This document shows, one piece after another, positions 3,939 through 60,813 of a stretch of DNA of 64,000 nt. This DNA is from Verrucomicrobiota bacterium. GTDB taxonomy: Bacteria > Verrucomicrobiota > Verrucomicrobiia > Verrucomicrobiales > Verrucomicrobiaceae. Numbering within the stretch: position 1 is the first letter of the stretch; each line of letters begins with the position of its first letter. The position numbers and the translations under genes are program-made. The stretch is taken from the NCBI GenBank assembly GCA_026397635.1, contig JAPLUL010000057.1:7665-71664 (forward strand), written 5' to 3'. A model generated the notes under the pieces. It was not told the origin of the DNA, did no database searches, and saw only the letters and a program-made list of their open reading frames with translations.

Positions 3939-5462
3939 ATGGCCTGGCTTTCCTCTTTCGGCACTCTCGGTGAGATTCTCAGCTTCCTTATCCTTCTCCT
4001 GGAGGTCATCCTGGTCTTCAACCTCATGATCGTCGTCCACGAATGGGGTCATTTCCTTGCCGCCCGCTGGCGTGGCCTCAAAATCGACAAGTTTTACATC
4101 TGGTTCGGCAAGCCGATCTGGAAAAAGACCCTCAACGGCGTGGAATACGGCCTCGGCAGCATCCCCGCTGGTGGATTTGTGGCCCTACCGCAGATGGCCC
4201 CCATGGGCGGCCTCGAAGGTGAGACCAGCACGGAAACGCTTCCGCCCATCACTCCGCTGGACAAGGCCATCGTGGCCTTCGCCGGTCCGTTGTTCAGTTT
4301 CATGCTTGCCTGCTTGTTCGCCGTGGCCGTTTGGCTCGTTGGCAAGCCTCAAAGTGAGGCGCACACCACCACCATCGTCGGTCGTGTGGAACAAGGCGGC
4401 CCTGCCATGCAGGCTGGTATTCTCCCTGGTGACAAGGTGCTCAACGTGGATGGCCAGCCGGTGAAACGCTTCGAAGGACTCGTGGATAGCGTGCGCTGGA
4501 GCGTCGTGGCCAGCGAGGGAGACAAGATCGCCTTCGAGGTGGAACGTCCAGGCCAAGGCGTGATGAAATTCGACGTCGATCCGAAGTCCTGGCCGAAGTC
4601 CGACCAGCCCGCCGCGCCCACCTCCTGGTGGAGTGCCATTTTCAAGCGTCCAGACCTCCGCTCCGTCGGTCTGGAAGGCCAGATGACTCCCATGGTCGGC
4701 AGCATCGCCCCAAACAGCCCGGCGGGAGAAGCGGGACTCAAGGCCAATGATCTCGTGGTCAAGGCCGATGGCAAACCTCTGCGCAGCATGGGAGAGCTGG
4801 GAGATTACATCAAGGCCACTCCTGGCAAGACGATCATGCTTGATGTCGAACGCGATGGCAAAGTCCTTCAAATTCCCGTTGTGCCGCGCATTCCAGATCA
4901 GAGCAATCTGAAGGAATTCACGGAAGACAAAAAAGAATACCCGATGATCGGTGTGGCCTGGGATGTGGAGGGCAAGCGCACCCCCGTCATTCTCACGCCC
5001 TGGGAGCAGATCAGCGACGCCGTGCGTCACATGGGCAACCTCGTCTCCAAGCTGGTCTCGCCCAAGTCCGACCTCAGCCCTGCTCATATGAGCGGCCCTG
5101 TGGGTGTCGGTCGTCTCTACTACAAGCTCTTCCAGCACCCCGATGGCTGGCGTCTCGTGTTGTGGTTCAGCGTCGTCTTCAACATCAACCTCGCCATTCT
5201 TAACATGATGCCGCTGCCCGTGCTCGACGGTGGTCACATCACCATGGCCGCGATCGAAGCCATCCGCCGCAAGCCGGCGCAGGGGCGCATCCTCGAATAT
5301 GTGCAGACTGCCTGCGCCTTGATGCTGTTTGGCTTCATCATCTTCGTCACCCTCAAAGACACCGGCGATTTCTTCGGCGGCGGTGCCAAAGATGGCAAGG
5401 AGCTCAAGATCCAATGGCTTTCCAAGGAACAGCGCGCAGCCAAGGTCGGCCCAGGTGCCTGA
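3939..5462 (+). CDS. rseP: Site-2 (RIP) zinc metalloprotease with two PDZ domains
   Basis: HEWGH zinc motif, GGFV, two PDZ-like segments (GPAMQAGI, SPAGEAGL) and NLAILNMMPLPVLDGG. Confidence 0.95.
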   Translation: MAWLSSFGTLGEILSFLILLLEVILVFNLMIVVHEWGHFLAARWRGLKIDKFYIWFGKPIWKKTLNGVEYGLGSIPAGGFVALPQMAPMGGLEGETSTETLPPITPLDKAIVAFAGPLFSFMLACLFAVAVWLVGKPQSEAHTTTIVGRVEQGGPAMQAGILPGDKVLNVDGQPVKRFEGLVDSVRWSVVASEGDKIAFEVERPGQGVMKFDVDPKSWPKSDQPAAPTSWWSAIFKRPDLRSVGLEGQMTPMVGSIAPNSPAGEAGLKANDLVVKADGKPLRSMGELGDYIKATPGKTIMLDVERDGKVLQIPVVPRIPDQSNLKEFTEDKKEYPMIGVAWDVEGKRTPVILTPWEQISDAVRHMGNLVSKLVSPKSDLSPAHMSGPVGVGRLYYKLFQHPDGWRLVLWFSVVFNINLAILNMMPLPVLDGGHITMAAIEAIRRKPAQGRILEYVQTACALMLFGFIIFVTLKDTGDFFGGGAKDGKELKIQWLSKEQRAAKVGPGA

Positions 5463-44896: not shown

Positions 44897-45214
44897 ATGC
44901 TGATGGCGGTGTTTGCGGGTGCGCTGGCGCTGCGGCAGTTCATCACGTTGTTACCGACGAAACCGGGCGATCACCGCACGCTGTTCTGGGTATTCTTCAT
45001 CATCACGCCGCTGCAGGCGGCGGGCATGGCAGCGCTCGTTGTGCTCATGGGCTTCACTGAAATTTTAGCGATCTCCGCGATCAAGCGTGATCGCGGCGTC
45101 AAAGACTGGGGCACCGCCATCGGCGGCCACGGAGGATTCATGGGCCGTATGGGCTCGCTGAGCTTCGCCGCTCCGGTGTTTTTCCATGTGTCGGGTTTTT
45201 GCTTCGGTCATTGA
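44897..45214 (+). CDS. Hypothetical membrane protein (possibly a relic)
   Basis: Two hydrophobic segments; no recognised family. Confidence 0.3.
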   Translation: MLMAVFAGALALRQFITLLPTKPGDHRTLFWVFFIITPLQAAGMAALVVLMGFTEILAISAIKRDRGVKDWGTAIGGHGGFMGRMGSLSFAAPVFFHVSGFCFGH

Positions 45215-48399: not shown

Positions 48400-48654
48400 A
48401 TGAGAACAACATTGATCATCGAAGATAGCATTTTGGCGAAGGCCAGCAGCTTGACCGGTATCACGGAAAAAACCAAGTTGGTTCACATGGGTTTGGAAGC
48501 TTTGATTCACAGGGAATCCGCCAGGAGGTTGTCTGCGTTGGGTGGTTCCATGCCAGATTTGACTGTGCCTCCGAGGAGGCGTCCCGATGACACCCCTCAC
48601 GGGGTCGCCACGTTAAATTTCGCTGAAGAACCTGCCGTCCATGGTGCTCGCTGA
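48400..48654 (+). CDS. vapB: VapB-family antitoxin (RHH, DUF2191-like)
   Basis: MRTTLIIEDSIL...GITEKTKLVHMGLEALI; overlaps the PIN gene. Confidence 0.85.
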   Translation: MRTTLIIEDSILAKASSLTGITEKTKLVHMGLEALIHRESARRLSALGGSMPDLTVPPRRRPDDTPHGVATLNFAEEPAVHGAR

Positions 48655-49021
48655 TACCAACATCTGGATCAATTTCCTGCGTGGCAAGGATCAGGCGCTG
48701 GGCCAGATGCTCTGGCGGGGCGAGATCATGATGCACTGGATCGTCATCGGTGAACTGGCGACGGGAAACCTCGCCAACCGCGCCCAATTTCTGACCGATT
48801 TGCGTGAGATGCAGATGGTTCAGCCCGCCACGGAACGTGAATCACTGGTGTTGATCGAAAATCGGCGGCTGTATGGCCGTGGTATCGGCTGGAACGACAT
48901 CCAGATTCTGGCCAGTTGCCTGATCAATCATGTGCCGTTCTGGACCAGTGACCGCAGACTGCGGGAAGCCGCCGAGGAACTGGGGTGTGCCTGGCAGGGA
49001 GAGGGTGAGAGCGAAGCTTGA
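48641..49021 (+). CDS. vapC: VapC PIN-domain ribonuclease toxin
   Basis: VLADTNIW, GELATG, GIGWNDIQI and WTSDRRL acidic tetrad. Confidence 0.9.
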   Translation: MVLADTNIWINFLRGKDQALGQMLWRGEIMMHWIVIGELATGNLANRAQFLTDLREMQMVQPATERESLVLIENRRLYGRGIGWNDIQILASCLINHVPFWTSDRRLREAAEELGCAWQGEGESEA

Positions 49022-49264: not shown

Positions 49265-49338
49265 CTCACGTCATCCCGCAGATCATTGCAGACCCGGCGT
49301 AGTTTTCAGGGACGGGCTGCGGCGGGACACCGCAGCCG

Positions 49339-49355
49339 ACACGCGGGACGCGTGT
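49339..49355. repeat. REP-like GC hairpin
   Basis: ACACGCG-GGA-CGCGTGT perfect 7-bp stem. Confidence 0.55.
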
Positions 49356-49432
49356 GCTCCACCCTGCCAGAAAGCTCGCCCGGATGTATGGATGTGCGGT
49401 GAAGTCGCCTGGGCTTTTCGAGGCCAGCCGCC

Positions 49433-49795
49433 TTACCCCTCAAACTCCGTCTCACGGTCCGCCGAAGAGAAGCAGATCACCATCTCCGCATCCCTGCCAT
49501 CCAGCGCATGGGCATTGTGCCACTGACCGGCGGGGATGGAGATCGTGTCGCCGGGGTTGAGGAGGAATTTCTGCTCCCCGAGGCTGTGTTCGAGGCGACC
49601 GGAGAGCAGGTGAAGGATTTCGTCGCAGTTCGGATGGCGGTGACGCGGGTTCGTTTGACCGGCGGGGATCGTCACTCGGCCAAAAGTCATCGTGGTGGAG
49701 TTTCCCAATTCGCGGGAGGCCAGCCAGGTGAGTTTTCCCCAGGGTTGGTCGATCAAATTGCCTTCGGCTGGCGTGCGAACGGGCGTGCGGTTCAT
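49433..49795 (-). CDS. Cupin-domain protein
   Basis: HRHPNCDEILHLLSG and GDTISIPAGQWH cupin motifs. Confidence 0.9.
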   Translation of the reverse strand: MNRTPVRTPAEGNLIDQPWGKLTWLASRELGNSTTMTFGRVTIPAGQTNPRHRHPNCDEILHLLSGRLEHSLGEQKFLLNPGDTISIPAGQWHNAHALDGRDAEMVICFSSADRETEFEG

Positions 49796-50006
49796 GGGGT
49801 GATTGTTTCGGTTCGAGCCGGTTTTGGCGACTGATTTTTAGCCGGGAAGGGGGGTGGTAAGTCTTTTGTAAAGGCTTTATTGATTATTGCTTCTATATTT
49901 TAAGACTCTAAAATGGGTGTGTTCTCAGATTTGAAAGTCTCTCACGGTCATGTCTTCCCACGCACCACTCCGCCAAATCTCGAAGTCGTCGCAATTGCTG
50001 CGGAAA

Positions 50007-52646
50007 ATGGTCCTTGGGGCGGTTTTTTCGATCGCAGGATTGATGGCGGCGGATCTGAGTTCGGCCCGCCATTTGTATGTCGATCAGTCGCTGCGGCCTG
50101 ATCCGCGGTCGGTGGCCGCCTTTGACCTCAGTGTGCTGCATCCGCAGGCCGAGGTGGACATGGAGCCGGGCCATGCCTTGGGAAACCGCTACCTCGCGCT
50201 GCTCGACACCGTCCACTACCAAACCGGAACACGCGCGGCCATGCTCGCGGTGGAGCGCCAGATGGCCTCGAAGCCCTCCGCCGCAGACCCGCGTGGTCGG
50301 CTGGCTGATCTGGCGCATCCGGAGTGGATTCCCTGGGTGGTGGAGTCGCTGGCCGATCCAGCGGCGAAGAAAGGTTTTGATGGTTTTGTGCTGAGCCTTG
50401 GCGGTGAAGCGGCCTCTCCTGCCTCACGCGAAGCCTTCTTGAAACTCGCCGCCACCCTGCGGCAGCGCTTCCCGGACAAACGCCTGCTGCTGGATCTCCG
50501 CAGCGGCCTCGGCAGCGAGGCTGCTCGCGTCGCCGATGGTTTTCTCGCCTTGGGCGTTTACACGCGTGAAAGCCGCACCGGTGGCCTCGATTGGACCCCC
50601 ATCGCCGACGTAGAGTGCCTCACGCGGCACATTCGCTCAGTGCAGATGCAGGGCATGCGTGTTTTTGCGGTCGATTACGCGCCCGCCAAGGACCGTTCCG
50701 CCGCACGGGAAGCCGCGAAGCGTCTCAGCAGCATCGGTGCGCTGCCGTTCATCACCACGCCAGATCTGAGCGGCGTCAATCTCGGCCCGCTGGAGGAAAT
50801 CACCCGCCGCGTCCTCGTTCTGCATGGCTGGGATGCCAAACACACCGGCCAAGCCGCTCCCGCCGCCGAAAGCACCGCCACGGCCCGCTGCATGCGCCCG
50901 GTGCTTGAATGGCTGGGCTGCGAACTCGACTTCTGCAGCGCGAACGGGCCGGATTTTCTTCCTGCGTCGCATGATTTCAGCGCGGTGGTGCTCGATTCCG
51001 GTCTGGTGCTCAATGACGCGCAGCAGCGCTCGCTTGCCGCCTGGCTGCCCTCGCTGCGGGCCAAAAAAATCCCGCTGCTGCTCACCAGCATGCCCTTCAC
51101 GGATGAAACTGCCCGTCAGCAGGCACTGTTGCACCTCGGTCTCGGTGGCAGCGCGAAGCCCGTCTCCCATCTCGTCAAAGCCAACGTCGCTGGCATCGAC
51201 TCTACGCTCATCGGCGCAGGTTCACGCATTCAGGGTCGTGCGCTCGGTTTTCTGAATCTCACGGCTCCTGCGGACTCGCGCGTCGTGCTCGCCATGCGCG
51301 GGGAGGACGCGCTCGGCACCGAGCACCGCTTTGACCAGGCATTTCTCGCCACGTGGGGCGGGGCCTGCATCGACCCCATGCTCGGCATCAACGGCCCGCA
51401 GGTCGATCTTCCCGCTTTCCTCGCCGCATGGCTCGGTCGTGACCAAAGCGCTCCTGTGCCAGACACCACCACGCGTGATGGTCGCCGTGTCTTTTACAGC
51501 CACATTGAGAGCACAGGCTTCTCCACGCCTTCCACGCTCCCCGGTTTCCCTCTCTGCTCTGAGATCATGCGCGACCGCATCCTCGGGCGCTATCTGCTGC
51601 CCGTCACCGCCTCCGTGTGCGAGGCCGACCTGCGCGGCTGGTTTCCCGGCCAGGAGGCGGAAGCTGCGCCGCGCCTGGAGCACACGGCCCGTAGCATCTT
51701 CGAAATGCTGCAGGTCCAGGCCGCTTCGAACTCTTTTACCCGTCCTTCAACCTGGACGGCAGGCACCGACATCGCCGCCAAGCTCAACGATCGCGCTCAA
51801 ACCGCGCGTCAAGACATGGAACGCGAGATTGCCGGCTCCATGAACTACATCCACCGTCGGCTTCTGCCCGTGGGCAAAGACGTGAGCCTCATGCTGTGGC
51901 CGCAAAACGCCGCGCCCACACCTGAGGCGCTGAGCTTCTGCGAATCCATGCGCATTGAGAACCTGCCCGCCGCTCCCATCGGCACTCCGGCTGCCGTGCT
52001 CGATTCCAAATCAGTCCGTCTGGAGCCGGTCGCTGTGCGCAGCCGCTTTGAGGATGTGCGCACCGAGCCGGGCATCGCCGCGCTCGAAAAAACCCTCGAC
52101 GCCTGCGCCGCCGCGCCACTGCATGCCATGACCGCTGCTGCTTACGCCGCCAGCGTTCGCGACGCGCGGCACACGCGCATCCTGCGAGCGGCTGAAAATC
52201 ACTGGATCATCCTGAATCAGGGCGAATGCCGCACGCTGCGCCTTCCTGCCTCTGTTGGCGTGCCGGACATGACACGGTGCCTTGGCGTTTCTGGCTTCAA
52301 CACGCATGCAGGTCAGCTTTACATCCACACCCTGGGTGGAGCACGCACCGAGCTGGTTTTGACCCGGGGAAAAGCCGCGCGTCACATCCACCTCGTAGAA
52401 AGCAGTGCTCCGGTCGAGTTCATGGATCTGTCCTCCCGCCGCGCCACCTTCCACGTGCGTGATTTGCGTCCCGTCGAGGTGGTCTTCGGTGGTTTCGAGC
52501 CGCGCGGCCAGTGCGCCTATCTCGAAAACGGCCGTCCTTACACGGTGAATGCCGACGCCAGCGGTATCGTGCGTCTCGAACTCGTCTGCCGCGCTACCGT
52601 CTCCATCCAATCGCTCCCGCCCTCCGTCGAGGCCGCGATGCGCTAA
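50007..52646 (+). CDS. pelA: PelA homologue (glycoside hydrolase + deacetylase architecture) with degenerate catalytic sites
   Basis: PDTTTRDGRRVFYSHIESTGF, ASNSFTRP and RTLRLPASVGVPDMTRCLGVSG line up with the PelA segments as I recall them; signal peptide present. Confidence 0.8.
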   Translation: MVLGAVFSIAGLMAADLSSARHLYVDQSLRPDPRSVAAFDLSVLHPQAEVDMEPGHALGNRYLALLDTVHYQTGTRAAMLAVERQMASKPSAADPRGRLADLAHPEWIPWVVESLADPAAKKGFDGFVLSLGGEAASPASREAFLKLAATLRQRFPDKRLLLDLRSGLGSEAARVADGFLALGVYTRESRTGGLDWTPIADVECLTRHIRSVQMQGMRVFAVDYAPAKDRSAAREAAKRLSSIGALPFITTPDLSGVNLGPLEEITRRVLVLHGWDAKHTGQAAPAAESTATARCMRPVLEWLGCELDFCSANGPDFLPASHDFSAVVLDSGLVLNDAQQRSLAAWLPSLRAKKIPLLLTSMPFTDETARQQALLHLGLGGSAKPVSHLVKANVAGIDSTLIGAGSRIQGRALGFLNLTAPADSRVVLAMRGEDALGTEHRFDQAFLATWGGACIDPMLGINGPQVDLPAFLAAWLGRDQSAPVPDTTTRDGRRVFYSHIESTGFSTPSTLPGFPLCSEIMRDRILGRYLLPVTASVCEADLRGWFPGQEAEAAPRLEHTARSIFEMLQVQAASNSFTRPSTWTAGTDIAAKLNDRAQTARQDMEREIAGSMNYIHRRLLPVGKDVSLMLWPQNAAPTPEALSFCESMRIENLPAAPIGTPAAVLDSKSVRLEPVAVRSRFEDVRTEPGIAALEKTLDACAAAPLHAMTAAAYAASVRDARHTRILRAAENHWIILNQGECRTLRLPASVGVPDMTRCLGVSGFNTHAGQLYIHTLGGARTELVLTRGKAARHIHLVESSAPVEFMDLSSRRATFHVRDLRPVEVVFGGFEPRGQCAYLENGRPYTVNADASGIVRLELVCRATVSIQSLPPSVEAAMR

Positions 52647-52668
52647 TGTTTTTTTCCATCTCTGCCGC

Positions 52669-54284
52669 ATGTCCCGTAGCTCTCGCCAAGTTCTGTTGCT
52701 GATCACGTCCTACACGGCGCTCGCCGTCGCGTGGGGCTGGCGCTTGCATGCCAATGACGCGCCGCCGAAGAACAACGAGACGCTGCTAGACACCACCCGC
52801 GCCGAGATCATCGACCGCCTCGCCACCGCGCCTGCAGACCTCCAGCCGCCTGCCCTTTTGCAACTTGCGCTGCTGCCAGAGAAAGAAATCCTCGCTTTGC
52901 ATGAATGGCGCAGCAAGGCCCCATCCACACTCCCTGCCCGCTGAACACCGCGCTCGTCTTTACTGAACTCGAACGTGCTGACGCGCCGCTCATTGAGGAC
53001 ACGCGCCTGCTCATCTCCGCCGCCGGAGATCGGCTCGAAGAGCCGCACAAGCTCGCCGCTCTCGCACGTCTGGCCTCACAAGCTGCCGCCAACCACGAAC
53101 CCAACCTCGCCCTCGAAATTCATCAACGCGCCTGTGAGTCTGAGATCGCCACCTGGGAAAACGTGCTCGCCTTGGCCGATGCCGCGCGTGTGGCCCGCCG
53201 TCCGGCGGCCGCGTTGAAAGTCGTCAACGCCTGGCTTGCCCCCACCGCATCGCGGCTTGAAGCCAAGCGGCGTGATGACGCGCTCGATTTGCAGACCGCG
53301 CTCCTGCTCGAAGGCACGCGCTACGCCGAAGCCAGCCGCATCACGCTCGATGATCTGCGCTCCTTGAAGCTCAACGATGCCATCCCGCCGCGCCTCATGC
53401 AGCGTGCTTGGCTCGCCACGCATGCCGCTGGCGAGTCCGCCGAGCTCCTGCCATGGATCGAGCGGCATCTGCGCACCTTCCCAGATCATCAGTTCAGCGT
53501 CGAAGACATCGCCGCTGGAAAAACCGTCTCCGCTGACTATCTGCGCTGGCTCGGCGAGTCCGCCGCCATCGCCGACCGCCAACACCAGACCAGCATCGCC
53601 TGCGAGGGCTTCTTCCGCCTCGCCGCGGCTGGTGAAACCCGCGTGATGGCCCGTTTGCACGCGCTCGCCACGCAGATCGGTCGCGGCCACGAGCTCGCGC
53701 GGCTTTTCACCGCCTTGCAGCGCCGCATCTCCATTCTCGAACTCGCCCAGGCGCTCGCTGAAGGCAATGCGCCTGCTCCCGCTCGCGATCTTCTCGCCGC
53801 ACATCTCAAAACCACGCCCAACAACCGCGCCGGCTGGCATTTGCTCACCGAGATCGACGTGATGCTGCGTGGTGCCGCCTCCGCGCCCCAGCTGTGGGAA
53901 GGATTCCTCAAACGCTTCCCTGACGACGTTCCCGCCTTGAAGCGCCTCGCCCAGCTACAGATCAACAGCGCCCAGCACCTGCAGGCCCTCCGCACCTTGC
54001 TGCGCATCTCCAGCGTGGATCTCGACGAAGCCACGCTACGCCAGATCACCGCTCTTGCGGTTCAGCTCGACGATCTCACCACCGCCGTCCGCAGCCAGCA
54101 GCTCATCGTGCAAGGCTCCAAGCAGCCCGCCGTCAGCGATGTCCTCACCCTCGCCGCTTTGACACGTCAAAGCTCCGATGCCGATTCGCTGGCCGTGCTG
54201 GCTGAAACCGTCGCTCAACTGCCCGCTCCGGCCGCTTTCCAGCAGTCACTCATCATTCCCACCACCGCCGTGCAGGCGAAGTAA
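52669..54284 (+). CDS. All-helical TPR-like protein (PelB-position), split by a -1 frameshift near 52935-52940
   Basis: The frame-1 ORF 52669-52944 has an N-terminal hydrophobic segment and overlaps the frame-3 ORF to 54284. Adding one C at GCCCG gives continuous ...STLPAPLNTAL. Confidence 0.65.
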
Positions 54285-54324
54285 TTTTCGCGTCCATTCG
54301 CCGTCTGGTGGTCTATCTTCACCC

Positions 54325-54768
54325 ATGAACCGACTGACCGCCCTTTGCTTGCTTCTCCTGACCACTTTAGGCTGCTCAGTGCTTCCGCGTGATGAATTCA
54401 GCCGCCGCCAAGTTTACGAACACCGACTGAGTCGCCTCGAGTTCCCCGTGACCCGCGCCCGTCTCTACAAAACGCTGCGCCCCGCCGCTCCGGCGCGTCC
54501 CACGGGCGATGTCGGTGCGGGTTTGTTCTCCAGCAGCGAGGTTTACCGGCTCGATGATGTTTTCGTTGTCGAACTGTCCGTGGTTTACAAAGCCGTGGCG
54601 AACACAAGCGACTACCTCAATCCCTCCGGCTCCATCGGCGGCCAGGTCCGCGCCATTCTGGACGCCACGCAGAGCATCGACAACTTCATGACACGCGGCA
54701 CGCCCGAGAATCCGGCGGACATTGTGCAGAAGGCACGCATCGTGCAACGCCCGGTGCACCGTTATTGA
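54325..54768 (+). CDS. Hypothetical lipoprotein
   Basis: MNRLTALCLLLLTTLGC lipobox. Confidence 0.75.
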   Translation: MNRLTALCLLLLTTLGCSVLPRDEFSRRQVYEHRLSRLEFPVTRARLYKTLRPAAPARPTGDVGAGLFSSSEVYRLDDVFVVELSVVYKAVANTSDYLNPSGSIGGQVRAILDATQSIDNFMTRGTPENPADIVQKARIVQRPVHRY

Positions 54769-56925
54769 TCACCCGTGCTTCTTGATGACCTGGATGAAGT
54801 CCGGCAGGTATTCCTTGGCCTTCTTCTCGCCCACACCGCGAATTTTGAGGCCAGCGTCGAGCGTCTTGGGTTTCAGACGGGTCATGAACTCCAGGGTTTG
54901 ATTGCTGAAGATCATGAAGGCCGGCACGCCTTCAGATTCCGCCAGCGTGGCGCGGTGGCGCTTCAGTTTTTCAAATAAGGCGTCGTCGAACCCGAGCTCG
55001 CGGGCCGCCAGCTCTTCATTCTGCGCGGTTTTGCCCTTCGCGGGCTTGGCAGACGGCGCATGCAGCGAAGGCCAGCGCAGTTTGATGCCCTGGCCGCCCT
55101 TCATCGCCTGGATGCCGCGTGAAGTCAGCGAAACGATGGGATACTCGCCGCTGCTGGTCTCAATGAGGCCGAGTTTTTCCAGTTCGGCGAACAGCGGGTG
55201 CAGCGCGTGCGTGCCGATGTGCTTGAGCAGGCCGTAGGTGCTGAGTTGATCGAGTCCGGCATCGACGATCTCCTTCGACTTGCTGCCGATAAGCATCTGA
55301 ATGATGCGCCCTTTGCCGTAGCGGCCTTCCCACGAGCCATCCGCATGCTTGGTGGACATGCGGGCGATCCCGCTGAGCGCCTGACGCAGCATGGTGACTT
55401 CCTCCACCGTGCCTTCACGCGGCGGCTGCACGCCTTCGGCCCGGCACACGTCACAGGTGCCACAGGGCGTGCTCTCGGATTCGCCGAAGTAGCGCAAAAT
55501 CTGCTCCTGGCGGCAGGCTTTGTCGTCGTAGCACAGCTCGATCATCGACTTGAGCTTCGAGCGGTCGCGGCGGTCTTTTTCGCGCAAGGCGTCCGTGTCG
55601 AACTGAAGATCACGCGTCAGCACCTTCGGCTGCAAGAGTCGGGTGCCGCGAACGCGCTTCCCGGGGATGTCAAAACGCTCGATGTAGCCGTTGCGGGTGA
55701 GATGGCTGAGCGCCGAGCCGATGGCCATGCTGTTTTTGGCTCCAGCGCGGTCCGTGATGTCGTCAATCGACGCCTGCAACTCGTGATTCGAGTCTGACGC
55801 GTTCAACAGGGCCTGGTACACGTTCCGAATGATCTCCACGCTTGGGTTGTTGCCGTCGATGAAGAATTCCTGGGTCTTCGTATCGGCAAAATTGAAGAAC
55901 AGATCGCACTGCGAGGGCTCGCCATCGCGTCCGGCGCGGCCTGCTTCCTGGTAATAGGCTTCCACGCTGCCGGGAACGTCGAAATGGACGACAAAGCGGA
56001 CATCCGAGCGGTCGATGCCCATCCCGAAGGCGTTCGTGGCCACGGCGACATCGGCTTTCTTTGAGATGAACTTCGTCTGGCGTGATTCGCGTTCTTTATC
56101 ATCGAGACCGCCGTGGTATTCGATGGCCTTGAGCTTCCAGGAGCGCAGTTCCTCACCGACTTCCTCGACACGCTTGCGGGTGGAGCAATAGACGATGCCC
56201 GTCTTGAACTGCGTGATGATGTGTTTGAGCCGCTGGTATTTGTCGCCGTTGTTTTTCGTCTGCGTGATGTTCAGGCTCAGATTCGGACGTTCAAAGCCGC
56301 GAATCGTCACGAAGGGATCACGTAGTTGCAGCGTGCGCAAAATATCCTCTCGCACCTCTGGCGTGGCGGTGGCGGTGAGGGCGACGACTTGCGGACGGTC
56401 CAGATGCTCCAAAGCCTCGCCAAGGCGCATGTAATCCGGTCTGAAATCGTGACCCCACTGAGACAGGCAATGCGCCTCATCGACGGCAAACAGCGCGATC
56501 TGCACCTGCCGCAGTGCGTTGGTGAACAGGTGGCTGCGAAAGCGCTCTGGCGCGACATAGACGAGCTTGTACTCGCCCCGCCGCAACGCGTTGATGCGCT
56601 CCTGCTGCTCGCCGAGAGAGATGGAGCTGTTGATTACTGTGGCGGGAATGCCGCGCCGCTCCAGTGCATCGACCTGGTCCTTCATTAGCGCGATGAGCGG
56701 ACTCACCACGATGGTCACGCCATCCATCACCATCGCCGGAAGCTGGTAGCAGAGGGATTTGCCGCCGCCGGTCGGCATGATGACCATCGTGTCGCGTCCG
56801 CTCAGGATGTTCGCCATGACGGTTTCCTGCCCGTCGAGAAACTCGCGGAAGCCGAAATACTTCTGCAACGCCAGCTTGGCGTCGTGAATCGGTGTGTGTG
56901 TGGCGATGGGTTCTTCTTCGGGCAC
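54769..56925 (-). CDS. recQ: ATP-dependent DNA helicase RecQ
   Basis: [40 protein letters not shown], Cys-rich Zn region, RQC and HRDC domains. Confidence 0.96.
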
Positions 56926-58093: not shown

Positions 58094-60238
58094 TCACTCC
58101 TGTTCCTGCTTTGCCAGCGTGTGGGCAAAGGGGCTGGTGGAGGCGAGATTGTACTGACGGATAGCGACGGACCAGAAAGCCGCCAGTTCGTGGTCGGCGG
58201 CGCTCCACAGGCGGTAATGCAGGTTGGTGACGGTGTCCGTGTCATGCATCAGCGCCTTCAATTCTTGCGCACTGAGCGTCTGCGGCCCCTGGGTGATGAG
58301 GCGGTGGCCGATTTCATCCAGATAACTGCGAGAGACGTCGATGGTGCGGCGGCGGCGCAGCAGGCTGACGTGGAGGCCGTTGACATACGGGTCGAGGCAG
58401 ACCTGCATGAGGCCGTAGTGGCGCTCCAACTCAGGTGGGAGCTGGATGCGGTCTTTAATTTCCTCCAGGTTCTGCTGCATGGTCTTCAGCACGGTGGGAG
58501 GATCGTACTCCTCCGGCGTGAGGAAGACGCCGAGACGTTTGCCGCTGCGCGCACCCGAGACGAGGGCGGCGACGAGGATCGAAACGACCAGCGAGAACAA
58601 AATCGGGCTGATCCAGACGAGAAACTCCCAGGAGACAAACCAACCGAGCACCGCCCAAGCCACCCCCAGCAGTGTGACGCTGGCGAAGGTAATGATGATC
58701 TCGCTCCAATTGATCCCACCGTCGATTTTCCGGCGCTGCGTGACCCAACTGACGCTTTTCCCGATGAGCGTGTAGATGACAAATCGCGAGTGGAAGATCA
58801 TGAGCACGGGGGCCATGAGCGTGAACACCACGGTGTCGAGCAAACTGCTGACAAAGGTGAGCAGCCGCAGCTTCAGCGGCTTGAACAGACGGCCCGTGAT
58901 GACCTCGTCGAGCAGGATGACGGTCTTCGGCAGGAAGATGAGCATGGCGGTGAGGCCAAGGAGAATCTGCTCGGCCAAGATGGCCTGCGGCTGCTGATGC
59001 GCCGTGGGCGTGGCGGCGAGATACGTCGCCAGCACGAGGAAGAAGAACCACAGCAGCGAGCTGACATAGCTGAGGATGCCGTGGAGGAAATTCACGCGGC
59101 TCATCGGGTGCCAGCCCTTCGCAAACACGAGCCAAAGATGCTGGATGTTGCCCTGGCACCAGCGGCGGTCGCGTTTGAGCATATCGACCAGTGTGGGCGG
59201 CCCTTCCTCGTAGCTGCCACGCGTGGTGGGCAGCAACCGCACAGCGTAACCGGCCTTCCGCATCAAAGCGGCCTCCACGAAGTCGTGGCTCAAGATGTGA
59301 CCGCCGAAAGGTGCGTTGGCAGGCAGCGGCGGTAGTGCGCAGTGCTCAATGAACGGCGCGAGGCGCAGGATGGCGTTGTGGCCCCAGAAATTGGCCTCGC
59401 CGCACTGCCAGTAGTCGAGTCCGGCCATGAAAGGCGGTCCGTAAAGCGCTTGCGCGAACTGCATCACGCGGCCCAGCAGCGTGTCCGCTGCGATCTGCTT
59501 CGGAAAGGTCTGCACGATGCCGATGCCGGGATTTTTCTCCATGATGCGCACCATGCTGGTGAGCAAGGAACCGGACATGAGGCTATCGGCATCCAGCACG
59601 ACCATGTAACGGTAGCGGCGGCCCCAGCGGCGGCAGAAGTCGCTGACGTTGCCGCTCTTGCGGTTGATCTGCTTGCGGCGCTTGCGGTAAAAGATTCTGC
59701 CAAAGGCGTTGAGCTGGCGGCAGAGCTCCAGCCAGGCGGTTTCCTCCTCGATCCACTGGCTGGCCTTGTCCGAGTCGCTGAGAATGAAAAAGTCGAAGTT
59801 TTTCGACTGCCCGGTGGCCTCCAAGGAGAGGTAAATCGAGCGCAGCCCCTCAAACACGCGTGTCACGTCTTCATTGAAGACCGGCATGACGATGGCGGTG
59901 CTGGCGGTGATCGGCTGCTCGTAATCTTCCGCGTTCAGCGTCAGCCAGAGATTGAGCGGATCAGGCTTCGGGCGGTTCATCAGCCACACGCCGAAAAGCG
60001 CGGTCCAGAAGCCGACATTGAGCTGGTAATAAAGCGGGATGAAAACCAGCAGCAGCGCCCACTCCGCGATGCGCATGCCGTTTTCTGAGAGGAAAATGAA
60101 CGAGAGCCAAGCACCGACGATGGTGCCTAGGCCGACGAGCGAGAAAAACGTGGCCCGCCGCGTGCGCGAGATGCGCTTCGGCGGCATGCCGGCGGTCATC
60201 GCGATGTTCGCAGTCTGGCTGCCGATGGGTGCGCTCAT
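58094..60238 (-). CDS. opgH: Glucans biosynthesis glucosyltransferase H
   Basis: MPVFNED, ILSDS, RKSGNVSDF, VLDADS, FWGHNAI, ILSHDFVEA and RDRRWCQGNIQH. Confidence 0.95.
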   Translation of the reverse strand: MSAPIGSQTANIAMTAGMPPKRISRTRRATFFSLVGLGTIVGAWLSFIFLSENGMRIAEWALLLVFIPLYYQLNVGFWTALFGVWLMNRPKPDPLNLWLTLNAEDYEQPITASTAIVMPVFNEDVTRVFEGLRSIYLSLEATGQSKNFDFFILSDSDKASQWIEEETAWLELCRQLNAFGRIFYRKRRKQINRKSGNVSDFCRRWGRRYRYMVVLDADSLMSGSLLTSMVRIMEKNPGIGIVQTFPKQIAADTLLGRVMQFAQALYGPPFMAGLDYWQCGEANFWGHNAILRLAPFIEHCALPPLPANAPFGGHILSHDFVEAALMRKAGYAVRLLPTTRGSYEEGPPTLVDMLKRDRRWCQGNIQHLWLVFAKGWHPMSRVNFLHGILSYVSSLLWFFFLVLATYLAATPTAHQQPQAILAEQILLGLTAMLIFLPKTVILLDEVITGRLFKPLKLRLLTFVSSLLDTVVFTLMAPVLMIFHSRFVIYTLIGKSVSWVTQRRKIDGGINWSEIIITFASVTLLGVAWAVLGWFVSWEFLVWISPILFSLVVSILVAALVSGARSGKRLGVFLTPEEYDPPTVLKTMQQNLEEIKDRIQLPPELERHYGLMQVCLDPYVNGLHVSLLRRRRTIDVSRSYLDEIGHRLITQGPQTLSAQELKALMHDTDTVTNLHYRLWSAADHELAAFWSVAIRQYNLASTSPFAHTLAKQEQE

Positions 60239-60813
60239 GCGAAGAGGGAGTAAAGGTAGCCCAGCACGCTGAACACGATCACAAACAGCACTGAGTAGCG
60301 CAGGATGGGATGGCGGCCGAGGCGGTCGAAGGTGTCCTCCGCCACATCGGGGATGAGGCCGAGGTCAATGTCACGCGGCGTCATTTTACTCACCTGCATG
60401 CCCGGGCCGGAGGTGCGCAGGGCAGAGCGCATGGCTTCGGCCATGTCATTCGGCATGTTTTTCTCATCCAGAAAGAACTGCGGCCAGCGGGCAGGGCCGC
60501 CCGCGAGGTGGAAGCCCAGCCGCCCCGTGGCCTCTAGCTGCGCCTCGCTCAAGTTGAGGTCGCTGTAGATCGTCCCCAGCCACTCCCTCAGCATCAGCCG
60601 CGCTTGCTCGATGGCATGCGCCGTGGGCGTGCGTGTGGGGTCTTTCGCATGCGCCTCGGCGGCCTTGCGCAGCGTTTCCAGGATGAGCTGCGTGCGGCGG
60701 ATGCGGTTGTGCAGCTGGTAAGAGCGAAAATAGTCGGCGAGGCGCGCATACGCCTCGTTCCATGCTTCCTCAGTGCCCGTCGCCGGCGCGAATTGGATAT
60801 TGACTGCTTCCAT
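60235..60813 (-). CDS. Hypothetical protein with a C-terminal TM, translationally coupled to opgH
   Basis: The stop overlaps the opgH start; C-terminal hydrophobic helix. Confidence 0.75.
   Translation of the reverse strand: MEAVNIQFAPATGTEEAWNEAYARLADYFRSYQLHNRIRRTQLILETLRKAAEAHAKDPTRTPTAHAIEQARLMLREWLGTIYSDLNLSEAQLEATGRLGFHLAGGPARWPQFFLDEKNMPNDMAEAMRSALRTSGPGMQVSKMTPRDIDLGLIPDVAEDTFDRLGRHPILRYSVLFVIVFSVLGYLYSLFA

Follow-up and report, generated by a model that had tools for sequence, protein, structure and literature searches.

A pseudo-PelA and a putative half-PelB form a conserved gene pair detached from Pel synthase genes in Verrucomicrobiaceae

Organization of the Locus

The stretch of DNA analyzed here, referred to as the window, comprised 64,000 nucleotides (nt) of contig JAPLUL010000057.1 (positions 7,665–71,664 of the forward strand; assembly GCA_026397635.1) from a Verrucomicrobiota bacterium of the family Verrucomicrobiaceae, and its sequence occurs in freshwater metagenomes. 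Three co-directional plus-strand genes, g1, g2, and g3, occupied positions 49950–54768. The first encodes a homologue of PelA in which both active sites have been lost, and the second appears to encode a homologue of the N-terminal half of PelB. A first-pass annotation had placed a pelABC-like triad at 50007–54768. The three genes were confirmed, and the start of g1 is more likely at 49950 than at 50007, because the resulting product of 898 amino acids (aa) fits the length of its relatives. The features of the locus were as follows:

49796–49949, no strand: divergent intergenic region between the cupin gene (minus strand) and g1, with a conserved promoter-like element on the plus strand
49950–52646, plus strand: g1, predicted periplasmic PelA homologue of 898 aa that carries a signal peptide and has four domains, a double pseudoenzyme according to its match to 9CGY and the motif comparison
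52669–54284, plus strand: g2, putatively homologous to the N-terminal half of PelB; a membrane-anchor helix precedes a TPR-like solenoid, and a porin is lacking
52669–52944 and 52905–54284, plus strand: the two pieces of g2 in this assembly, split by a 40-nt gap
54325–54768, plus strand: g3, lipoprotein of 147 aa, of unknown fold family and specific to the Prosthecobacter clade

The triad was bordered by a cupin gene on one side (49433–49795, minus strand) and by recQ on the other (54769–56925, minus strand), and PSCyt/PSD and DUF1501 domains were carried by genes flanking it. The source names attached to homologues pointed to Prosthecobacter/Verrucomicrobiaceae.

Loss of Both Active Sites in the PelA Homologue

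Searches of Pfam and NCBIfam gave no match for g1. In a phmmer search it matched the structure of PelA from Pseudomonas thermotolerans (9CGY) with an E-value of 1.2e-36. The aligned stretches (g1 115–669 and 733–826 against chain residues 80–636 and 748–839) together touched the hydrolase-like, mixed alpha/beta, deacetylase-like, and beta-rich domains, and g1 thus possesses the full-length, four-domain architecture of PelA.

The catalytic residues of the PelA hydrolase (GH166) are D160 and E218, and those of the CE21 deacetylase are the base D528, the metal triad D530/H600/H604, E723, and the acid H761, as defined in the study of the 9CGY structure (PMC12022489). The D160A/E218A replacement inactivates the hydrolase, and alanine at the equivalents of D528, D530, H600, and H604 abolishes the esterase activity (PMC12022489). 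The numbering of the 9CGY chain was mapped to that of P. aeruginosa PelA (PaPelA) with offsets that agreed for both domains, and the mapping was checked by the spacings D160–E218 (58), H604–H761 (157), and E723–H761 (38). Alignment of 14 members of the g1 family with 17 PelAs from pel operons gave the following motifs:

D160: FLDTxDS in operon-linked PelAs; VLSLGG plus a deletion in the g1 clade
E218: (V/A)ES in operon-linked PelAs; LALG in the g1 clade
D528/D530: HxDGDGF in operon-linked PelAs; HIESTGF, variable, in the g1 clade
H600/H604: SHxxSHP in operon-linked PelAs; SNSFTRP in the g1 clade
E723: NQNE in operon-linked PelAs; deleted or replaced in the g1 clade
H761: YYHFY in operon-linked PelAs; VRSRF and variants in the g1 clade

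The GH166 pair was gone from g1 and from all members of its clade, hereafter the dead clade. Five of the CE21 residues (D530, H600, H604, E723, and H761) were gone from g1, and D528 was replaced by Glu at a position that varies across the clade. The complete motif set was found in none of the 104 full-length members of the g1 family, and the operon-linked PelAs of other Verrucomicrobiota and of Pseudomonadota all retained the canonical motifs. Both the structural match and the degenerate motifs bore out the earlier description of the first gene as a pseudo-PelA.

The conservation of the g1 family was even over the four domains (0.66–0.75), and 88 positions were invariant among 31 non-redundant members. 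The ratio of nonsynonymous to synonymous substitution rates (dN/dS) of g1 against four relatives was 0.15–0.18, and the range across the cassette was 0.15–0.29; both g1 and g2 evolve under purifying selection. Even conservation together with this low dN/dS indicated that g1 is a conserved pseudoenzyme and not a pseudogene.

The Second Gene and the Assembly Junction

The AlphaFold2 model of g2, built on 62 sequences, had a pLDDT of 87.9 and was all-alpha, with about 30 helices and no strands. The N-terminal helix (residues 5–28), a putative membrane anchor, contained nearly invariant residues. No match of g2 to the PelB beta-barrel family PF24604 was found, whereas two controls, the PelB of L078 and a 935-aa protein of L037 (L numbers denote contigs and loci), did match it. 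The product was therefore TPR-like and free of a barrel, as the first-pass annotation had it; lacking both the barrel and the alpha-rich portal, g2 cannot itself be an outer-membrane exporter.

A phmmer search of g2 against the PDB returned no match, and its relationship to PelB was traced through pel operons. P0110, a distant relative of g1, heads an operon that encodes, in order, a pelA-like protein, a 618-aa protein, PelD-like and PelE-like proteins, PelF (DUF3492 plus GT4), and PelG (PF16933). BLASTP aligned g2 with the 618-aa second protein at 28% identity over 406 aa (E 4e-30). The second genes of such operons, here termed the B′ family, matched the g2 profile in hhalign over 523 columns with an E-value of 6.6e-85, and the B′ family was in turn colinear with residues 178–492 of canonical PelB at 95.3% probability. 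In Phragmitibacter, PelB is divided between two genes, one for B′ (717 aa) and one for a protein of 935 aa with TPRs and the PF24604 beta-barrel; fission of PelB has been noted earlier (PMC7112194). The evidence for homology between g2 and the TPR-bearing N-terminal region of PelB is indirect, passing through B′, but consistent, and we regard g2 as a putative half-PelB.

The first-pass annotation had estimated the product of the second gene at about 540 aa once joined. Joining was needed solely for a 40-nt gap in this assembly: g2 was a single gene of 551–591 aa in every relative, including the intact 560-aa orthologue P0112, and the length given for the intact protein is 551–562 aa. All relatives carry the 40 nt missing at 52909/52910 of the window; they were seen in L002, in runs X2 and X5, as well as in L098, a 5.9-Mb contig 97–99% identical to the window. 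The Logan contigs of the probable source run, X1, stopped at 52903 and resumed at 52910, and at the 52909/52910 junction itself the identity of the window to L098 rose from 97.2 to 99.1%. Both halves of g2 showed normal purifying selection. Because the gap was seen in this assembly alone, where contigs of the probable source run break, the split is probably an assembly artefact, and the junction at 52903–52910 has the appearance of strain variants joined into a chimera.

The loss of catalytic residues, the split of g2 in this assembly, and a frameshift of g3 in a sister strain might together suggest that the cassette is a decaying pseudogene remnant that stayed behind when a pel operon was lost. 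We consider this extremely improbable: full-length, intact orthologues formed more than 100 clusters with identities down to 38%, the dN/dS values given above are those of constrained genes, and the split is peculiar to this assembly and sits at a contig break.

Conservation and Origin of the Pair

Each of the 14 distinct places in which both genes could be seen had g1 next to g2, at identities from 97% down to 38–39%. Their spacers ranged from 16 to 105 nt, or the genes overlapped, and the neighbors were otherwise unrelated; no conserved transporter or receptor gene was found beside the pair. A metagenome scan with the g2 profile gave at least 7 loci. The first-pass annotation had proposed checking whether the second and third genes stay beside the pelA homologue. 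The second did so throughout, and the third was present in 7 of 12 loci. The conserved unit is thus the g1–g2 pair, which g3 follows in the genus-level Prosthecobacter subclade only. The pair is a vertically conserved two-gene cassette and is predicted to be co-transcribed.

In the maximum-likelihood tree, the dead clade was monophyletic with a support of 100/100. Its sister group consisted of operon-linked Verrucomicrobiaceae PelAs that kept the hydrolase motifs and lost the deacetylase motifs. Further out, beyond this pair of sister groups, were a deacetylase-only form and the fully active verrucomicrobial PelAs. The pelA-pelB′ pair stands at the head of verrucomicrobial pel operons, and the g1–g2 pair of Verrucomicrobiaceae arose as its paralogue. 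The first-pass idea of a Pel-derived module thus holds for g1, which falls within the tree of verrucomicrobial PelAs, and for g2, homologous to the gene in the pelB position; it does not extend to g3, which is not PelC.

Several features of the operons themselves were observed. The PelAs of the Verrucomicrobiaceae pel operons L006, L012, and L022 had intact hydrolase motifs, and their deacetylase motifs were deleted. An extra 302-aa GH114-like gene preceded pelD in some operons (L037, 5485–6393; L016; L018). No pelC was visible in L006, L012, L022, L037, L016, or L018.

A previous study stated that PelA homologues with searchable genomes all lie in pel operons and have conserved active sites (PMC12022489). 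The g1 clade contradicts both generalizations.

Absence of Linked Synthase Genes

A tblastn search with verrucomicrobial PelD, PelE, PelF, and PelG found no homologue in the 64-kb window or in any dead-clade locus (14 places). The absence of pelD/E/F/G from the window and the detachment from synthase genes, both put forward in the first-pass annotation, were borne out, the pair lying apart from pelDEFG in every locus seen.

The minus strand of the window carries, beyond recQ, a gene for a 714-aa GT2 protein (Glyco_trans_2_3; 58094–60238) and, at 60235–60813, a gene for its 192-aa upstream partner of no known family. This pair had no sequence match in the PDB and was found in close relatives only; the isolates carry a gene for a 238-aa GT2 and a PMT_2 gene where the window has the 714-aa GT2. 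The GT2 was rejected as a hidden synthase partner: it lies on the opposite strand and is missing from the loci of the isolates and of other relatives.

An alternative explanation is that the pair still belongs to a working Pel or Pel-like secretion system, as a structural subunit that exports or guides the product of a pelDEFG-type synthase encoded, perhaps with an active PelA, at another locus of the same genome. There is a precedent for such unlinking. In the metagenome-assembled genome (MAG) JAQGPI01, contig L008 (1652–9229) encodes a PelA with intact deacetylase motifs and a degenerate hydrolase domain, followed by TPR genes of 732 and 908 aa, and its pelDEFG sits on a separate contig, L029. 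In addition, pel operons are common in Verrucomicrobiaceae, and a MAG labelled Prosthecobacter debontii carries one (L013). This operon and the split contigs of JAQGPI01 therefore leave some room for an unlinked synthase. When GTDB species genomes were scanned for the PelG pattern, pel operons came from many Verrucomicrobiota as well as from Pseudomonas, Jeongeupia, and Burkholderia. No cultured Prosthecobacter was among them, although Prosthecobacter vanneervenii and P. fluviatilis carry the cassette. None of the best 120 PelG matches bore the name Prosthecobacter, whereas many of the g1 and g2 matches do. These observations argue indirectly against the alternative, which we judge unlikely, if with an appreciable chance of being right.

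The Third Gene

The product of g3, trimmed to its lipoprotein signal (MNRLTALCLLLLTTLGC), is 147 aa long with the lipobox LLTTLGC|S. It had no match in Pfam, NCBIfam, or PADLOC. Run exhaustively against 1.84 billion representatives, phmmer found only three clusters at E<1e-30. The AlphaFold2 model was moderate (pLDDT 67.6), and a Foldseek search of the PDB with this moderate model gave a best E-value of 0.47 and no PelC. In hhalign against PelC of five canonical operons, the signal peptide alone was aligned (18 columns, 44.6%). The protein is a lipoprotein not recognizable as PelC, as the first-pass annotation had stated, and g3 is unrelated to PelC.

The pair was followed by g3 in the window, L002, L092, L093, L098/L099, P. 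vanneervenii, and P. fluviatilis, and g3 was missing in L001, L003, L005, L010, and L096, with a YkuD gene as its substitute in L003. In L002, a 94% relative, a HicA-type toxin gene (PF07927) and a 68-aa partner were inserted between g2 and g3 at 4563–4977. In L098/L099 (L098, 11657–12148), an 8-bp tandem duplication (CGCCCCGC twice) caused a frameshift in g3; both a JGI contig and a Logan assembly from a different run contained this frameshift of the 97–99% identical strain. The identity of g3 to the isolates was 70–74%, with a dN/dS of about 0.2. The cupin-to-recQ neighborhood was syntenic throughout the loci that keep g3, so the adjacency of g3 alone says little about its function.

The order of a modifier, a TPR protein, and a lipoprotein would fit a true pelABC-like triad in which g3, as a PelC analogue, builds a ring near the outer membrane that serves a channel for secretion or import, and the good conservation of g3 behind g2 in the seven Prosthecobacter-type loci is in line with it. 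The pelA and pelB legs of the proposed order stand. The pelC leg does not: g3 shares neither sequence nor fold with PelC and has no beta-barrel partner, it is absent from five of the 12 loci, with a YkuD gene in its place in one of them, and separated from g2 or frameshifted in others, and its position may reflect simple cupin-to-RecQ synteny. A triad of this kind is very improbable.

Upstream Region and Neighboring Genes

The AT-rich gap that the first-pass annotation had noticed before the triad was present: the 154 nt at 49796–49949 had a GC content of 0.50, compared with about 0.62. Within it, the blocks GCGACTGATTT, GGTAAGT..TTTGTAA, ATTGCTTCTA, CTCTA..ATG, and GTTC.CAG.TTTGAAAG were kept in seven Prosthecobacter-type loci, including those of P. 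vanneervenii and P. fluviatilis, between species whose proteins share merely 57–68% identity. One of the conserved blocks is a promoter-like element on the plus strand, with TTGCTT at −35 (49887–49892), a spacer of 16 nt, and TAAAAT at −10 (49909–49914); this element (49887–49914) is a candidate promoter of g1. A consensus promoter and terminator scan was uninformative, its sole site being on the minus strand. The Rfam scan of 49300–55000 matched no family and gave neither a riboswitch nor a cyclic di-GMP element. A reading as a defence system was unsupported, PADLOC giving no match for any of the three genes.

A 126-aa PIN-domain protein is encoded at 48641–49021, between the PSCyt/PSD1 gene and the cupin gene. 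This slot varies among relatives, with DUF5397 there in P. vanneervenii, and the PIN gene probably belongs to a toxin-antitoxin module. At 44897–45214, the CTP_transf_1 (CdsA-like) gene is only a 105-aa C-terminal fragment; P. vanneervenii and P. fluviatilis hold a full 316-aa gene at this position, and what the sister contig L098 retains is a remnant of 89 aa, preceded by IS66 genes.

Proposed Role of the Pair

In P. aeruginosa, the deacetylase and alpha/beta domains of PaPelA bind TPRs 9–19 of PelB. The strict adjacency of g1 and g2 and the precedent of this interface suggested a complex of the two proteins, and we consider it fairly probable that they act as a non-catalytic complex of PelA and half-PelB paralogues in the periplasm. 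By analogy with PelA on TPRs 9–15 of PelB, g1 and g2 would join in the periplasm, with the conserved helix of g2 anchoring their complex in the inner membrane. The dead grooves of g1 might bind or scaffold polysaccharide in the manner of a lectin instead of modifying it. In the Prosthecobacter subclade, g3 was presumably added downstream; it may tether or modulate the complex and would be dispensable.

More tentatively, the pair could be a synthase-independent, non-enzymatic module derived from the Pel system, in which a lectin-like pseudo-PelA sits on an inner-membrane-anchored half-PelB, in cultured Prosthecobacter seemingly without PelG, and has taken up a new role in capturing, retaining, or sensing polysaccharide in the periplasm or at the cell surface. 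This is a real possibility, though doubtful at present. We speculated that holdfast or prostheca-associated glycans might be the target. The first-pass suggestion that the module may sense, bind, or import polymers of the galactosaminogalactan type is hypothetical.

Several points weigh against these interpretations. The Foldseek comparison with PelB that the first-pass annotation had suggested gave generic TPR superhelices for g2, with no specific signal of PelB, PgaA, or BcsC. The direct profile match of g2 with canonical PelB reached just 73%, colinear with PelB 318–519. TPR profiles readily cross-match, and the link from g2 to PelB runs indirectly via B′. Furthermore, D144, E283, D349, D462, D505, E538, D738, H793, and D869 of g1 are invariant in the clade and could allow new catalytic residues.

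The last point leads to another explanation, in which g1 is a neo-functionalized enzyme that uses different residues as a new hydrolase, lyase, or esterase site. The high and even conservation of g1 with its many invariant positions, several of them these acidic and histidine residues, is compatible with it. Against it, the residues of the canonical sites are replaced by non-equivalent side chains (Leu, Ser/Gly, Thr, Asn, and Arg), the former site positions differ between clade members, the MT4 segment has been lost, and no alternative motif of g1 fits any Pfam or NCBIfam enzyme family. A new enzyme is therefore quite improbable.

What is new is a large, well-conserved clade of PelA with both active sites abolished and a PelB-type partner alone kept. 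PelA has so far been regarded as obligately bifunctional and as a constant companion of the pel operon (PMC12022489); the dead clade implies a second, non-catalytic life of the PelA fold. It offers a natural separation-of-function variant for studies of PelA-PelB scaffolding and glycan binding. An annotation as 'PelA' in Verrucomicrobiota should not count as evidence for Pel production. The cassette is present in the culturable P. vanneervenii and P. fluviatilis, and the question is thus directly testable.

Comparison with Known Systems

The closest known counterpart of g1 is PelA (P. aeruginosa PA3064; 9CGY; GH166 plus CE21), with which it shares full-length homology, a signal peptide, similar length, and a PelB-type TPR gene directly downstream. 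It differs from PelA in lacking D160, E218, D530, H600, H604, E723, and H761, in having Glu or a variable residue at D528, and in its location outside a pel operon.

PelB comprises an N-terminal inner-membrane helix, TPRs 1–19, and a C-terminal porin. The helix, the TPR superhelix, and the position after pelA are shared by g2, and its profile match on PelB residues of about 180–520 takes in the PelA-binding TPRs. However, g2 is about 560 aa long compared with about 1190 aa for PelB, and it has neither the alpha-rich portal nor the PF24604 beta-barrel. The split PelB/B′ genes (L006, L012, L022, and L037) likewise come after pelA and lack the barrel. B′ proteins are 618–746 aa long and share their operons with pelD-E-F-G; g2 is orphaned, and its C-terminus ends about 180 aa earlier.

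PelC forms an outer-membrane lipoprotein ring, and g3 is likewise a small lipoprotein encoded after a TPR gene. The homology of g3 to PelC stops at the signal peptide, there is no fold match, and the taxonomic range of g3 is narrow.

GH18 chi-lectins are catalytically inactive lectins with a glycoside hydrolase fold, in which the fold and groove are retained and the catalytic acid is changed to a non-ionizable residue. The replacement of E218 by Leu under purifying selection in g1 resembles this change; the families are unrelated, and glycan binding by g1 is putative. Taken against these systems, the g1–g2 pair remains a variant of the known Pel machinery.

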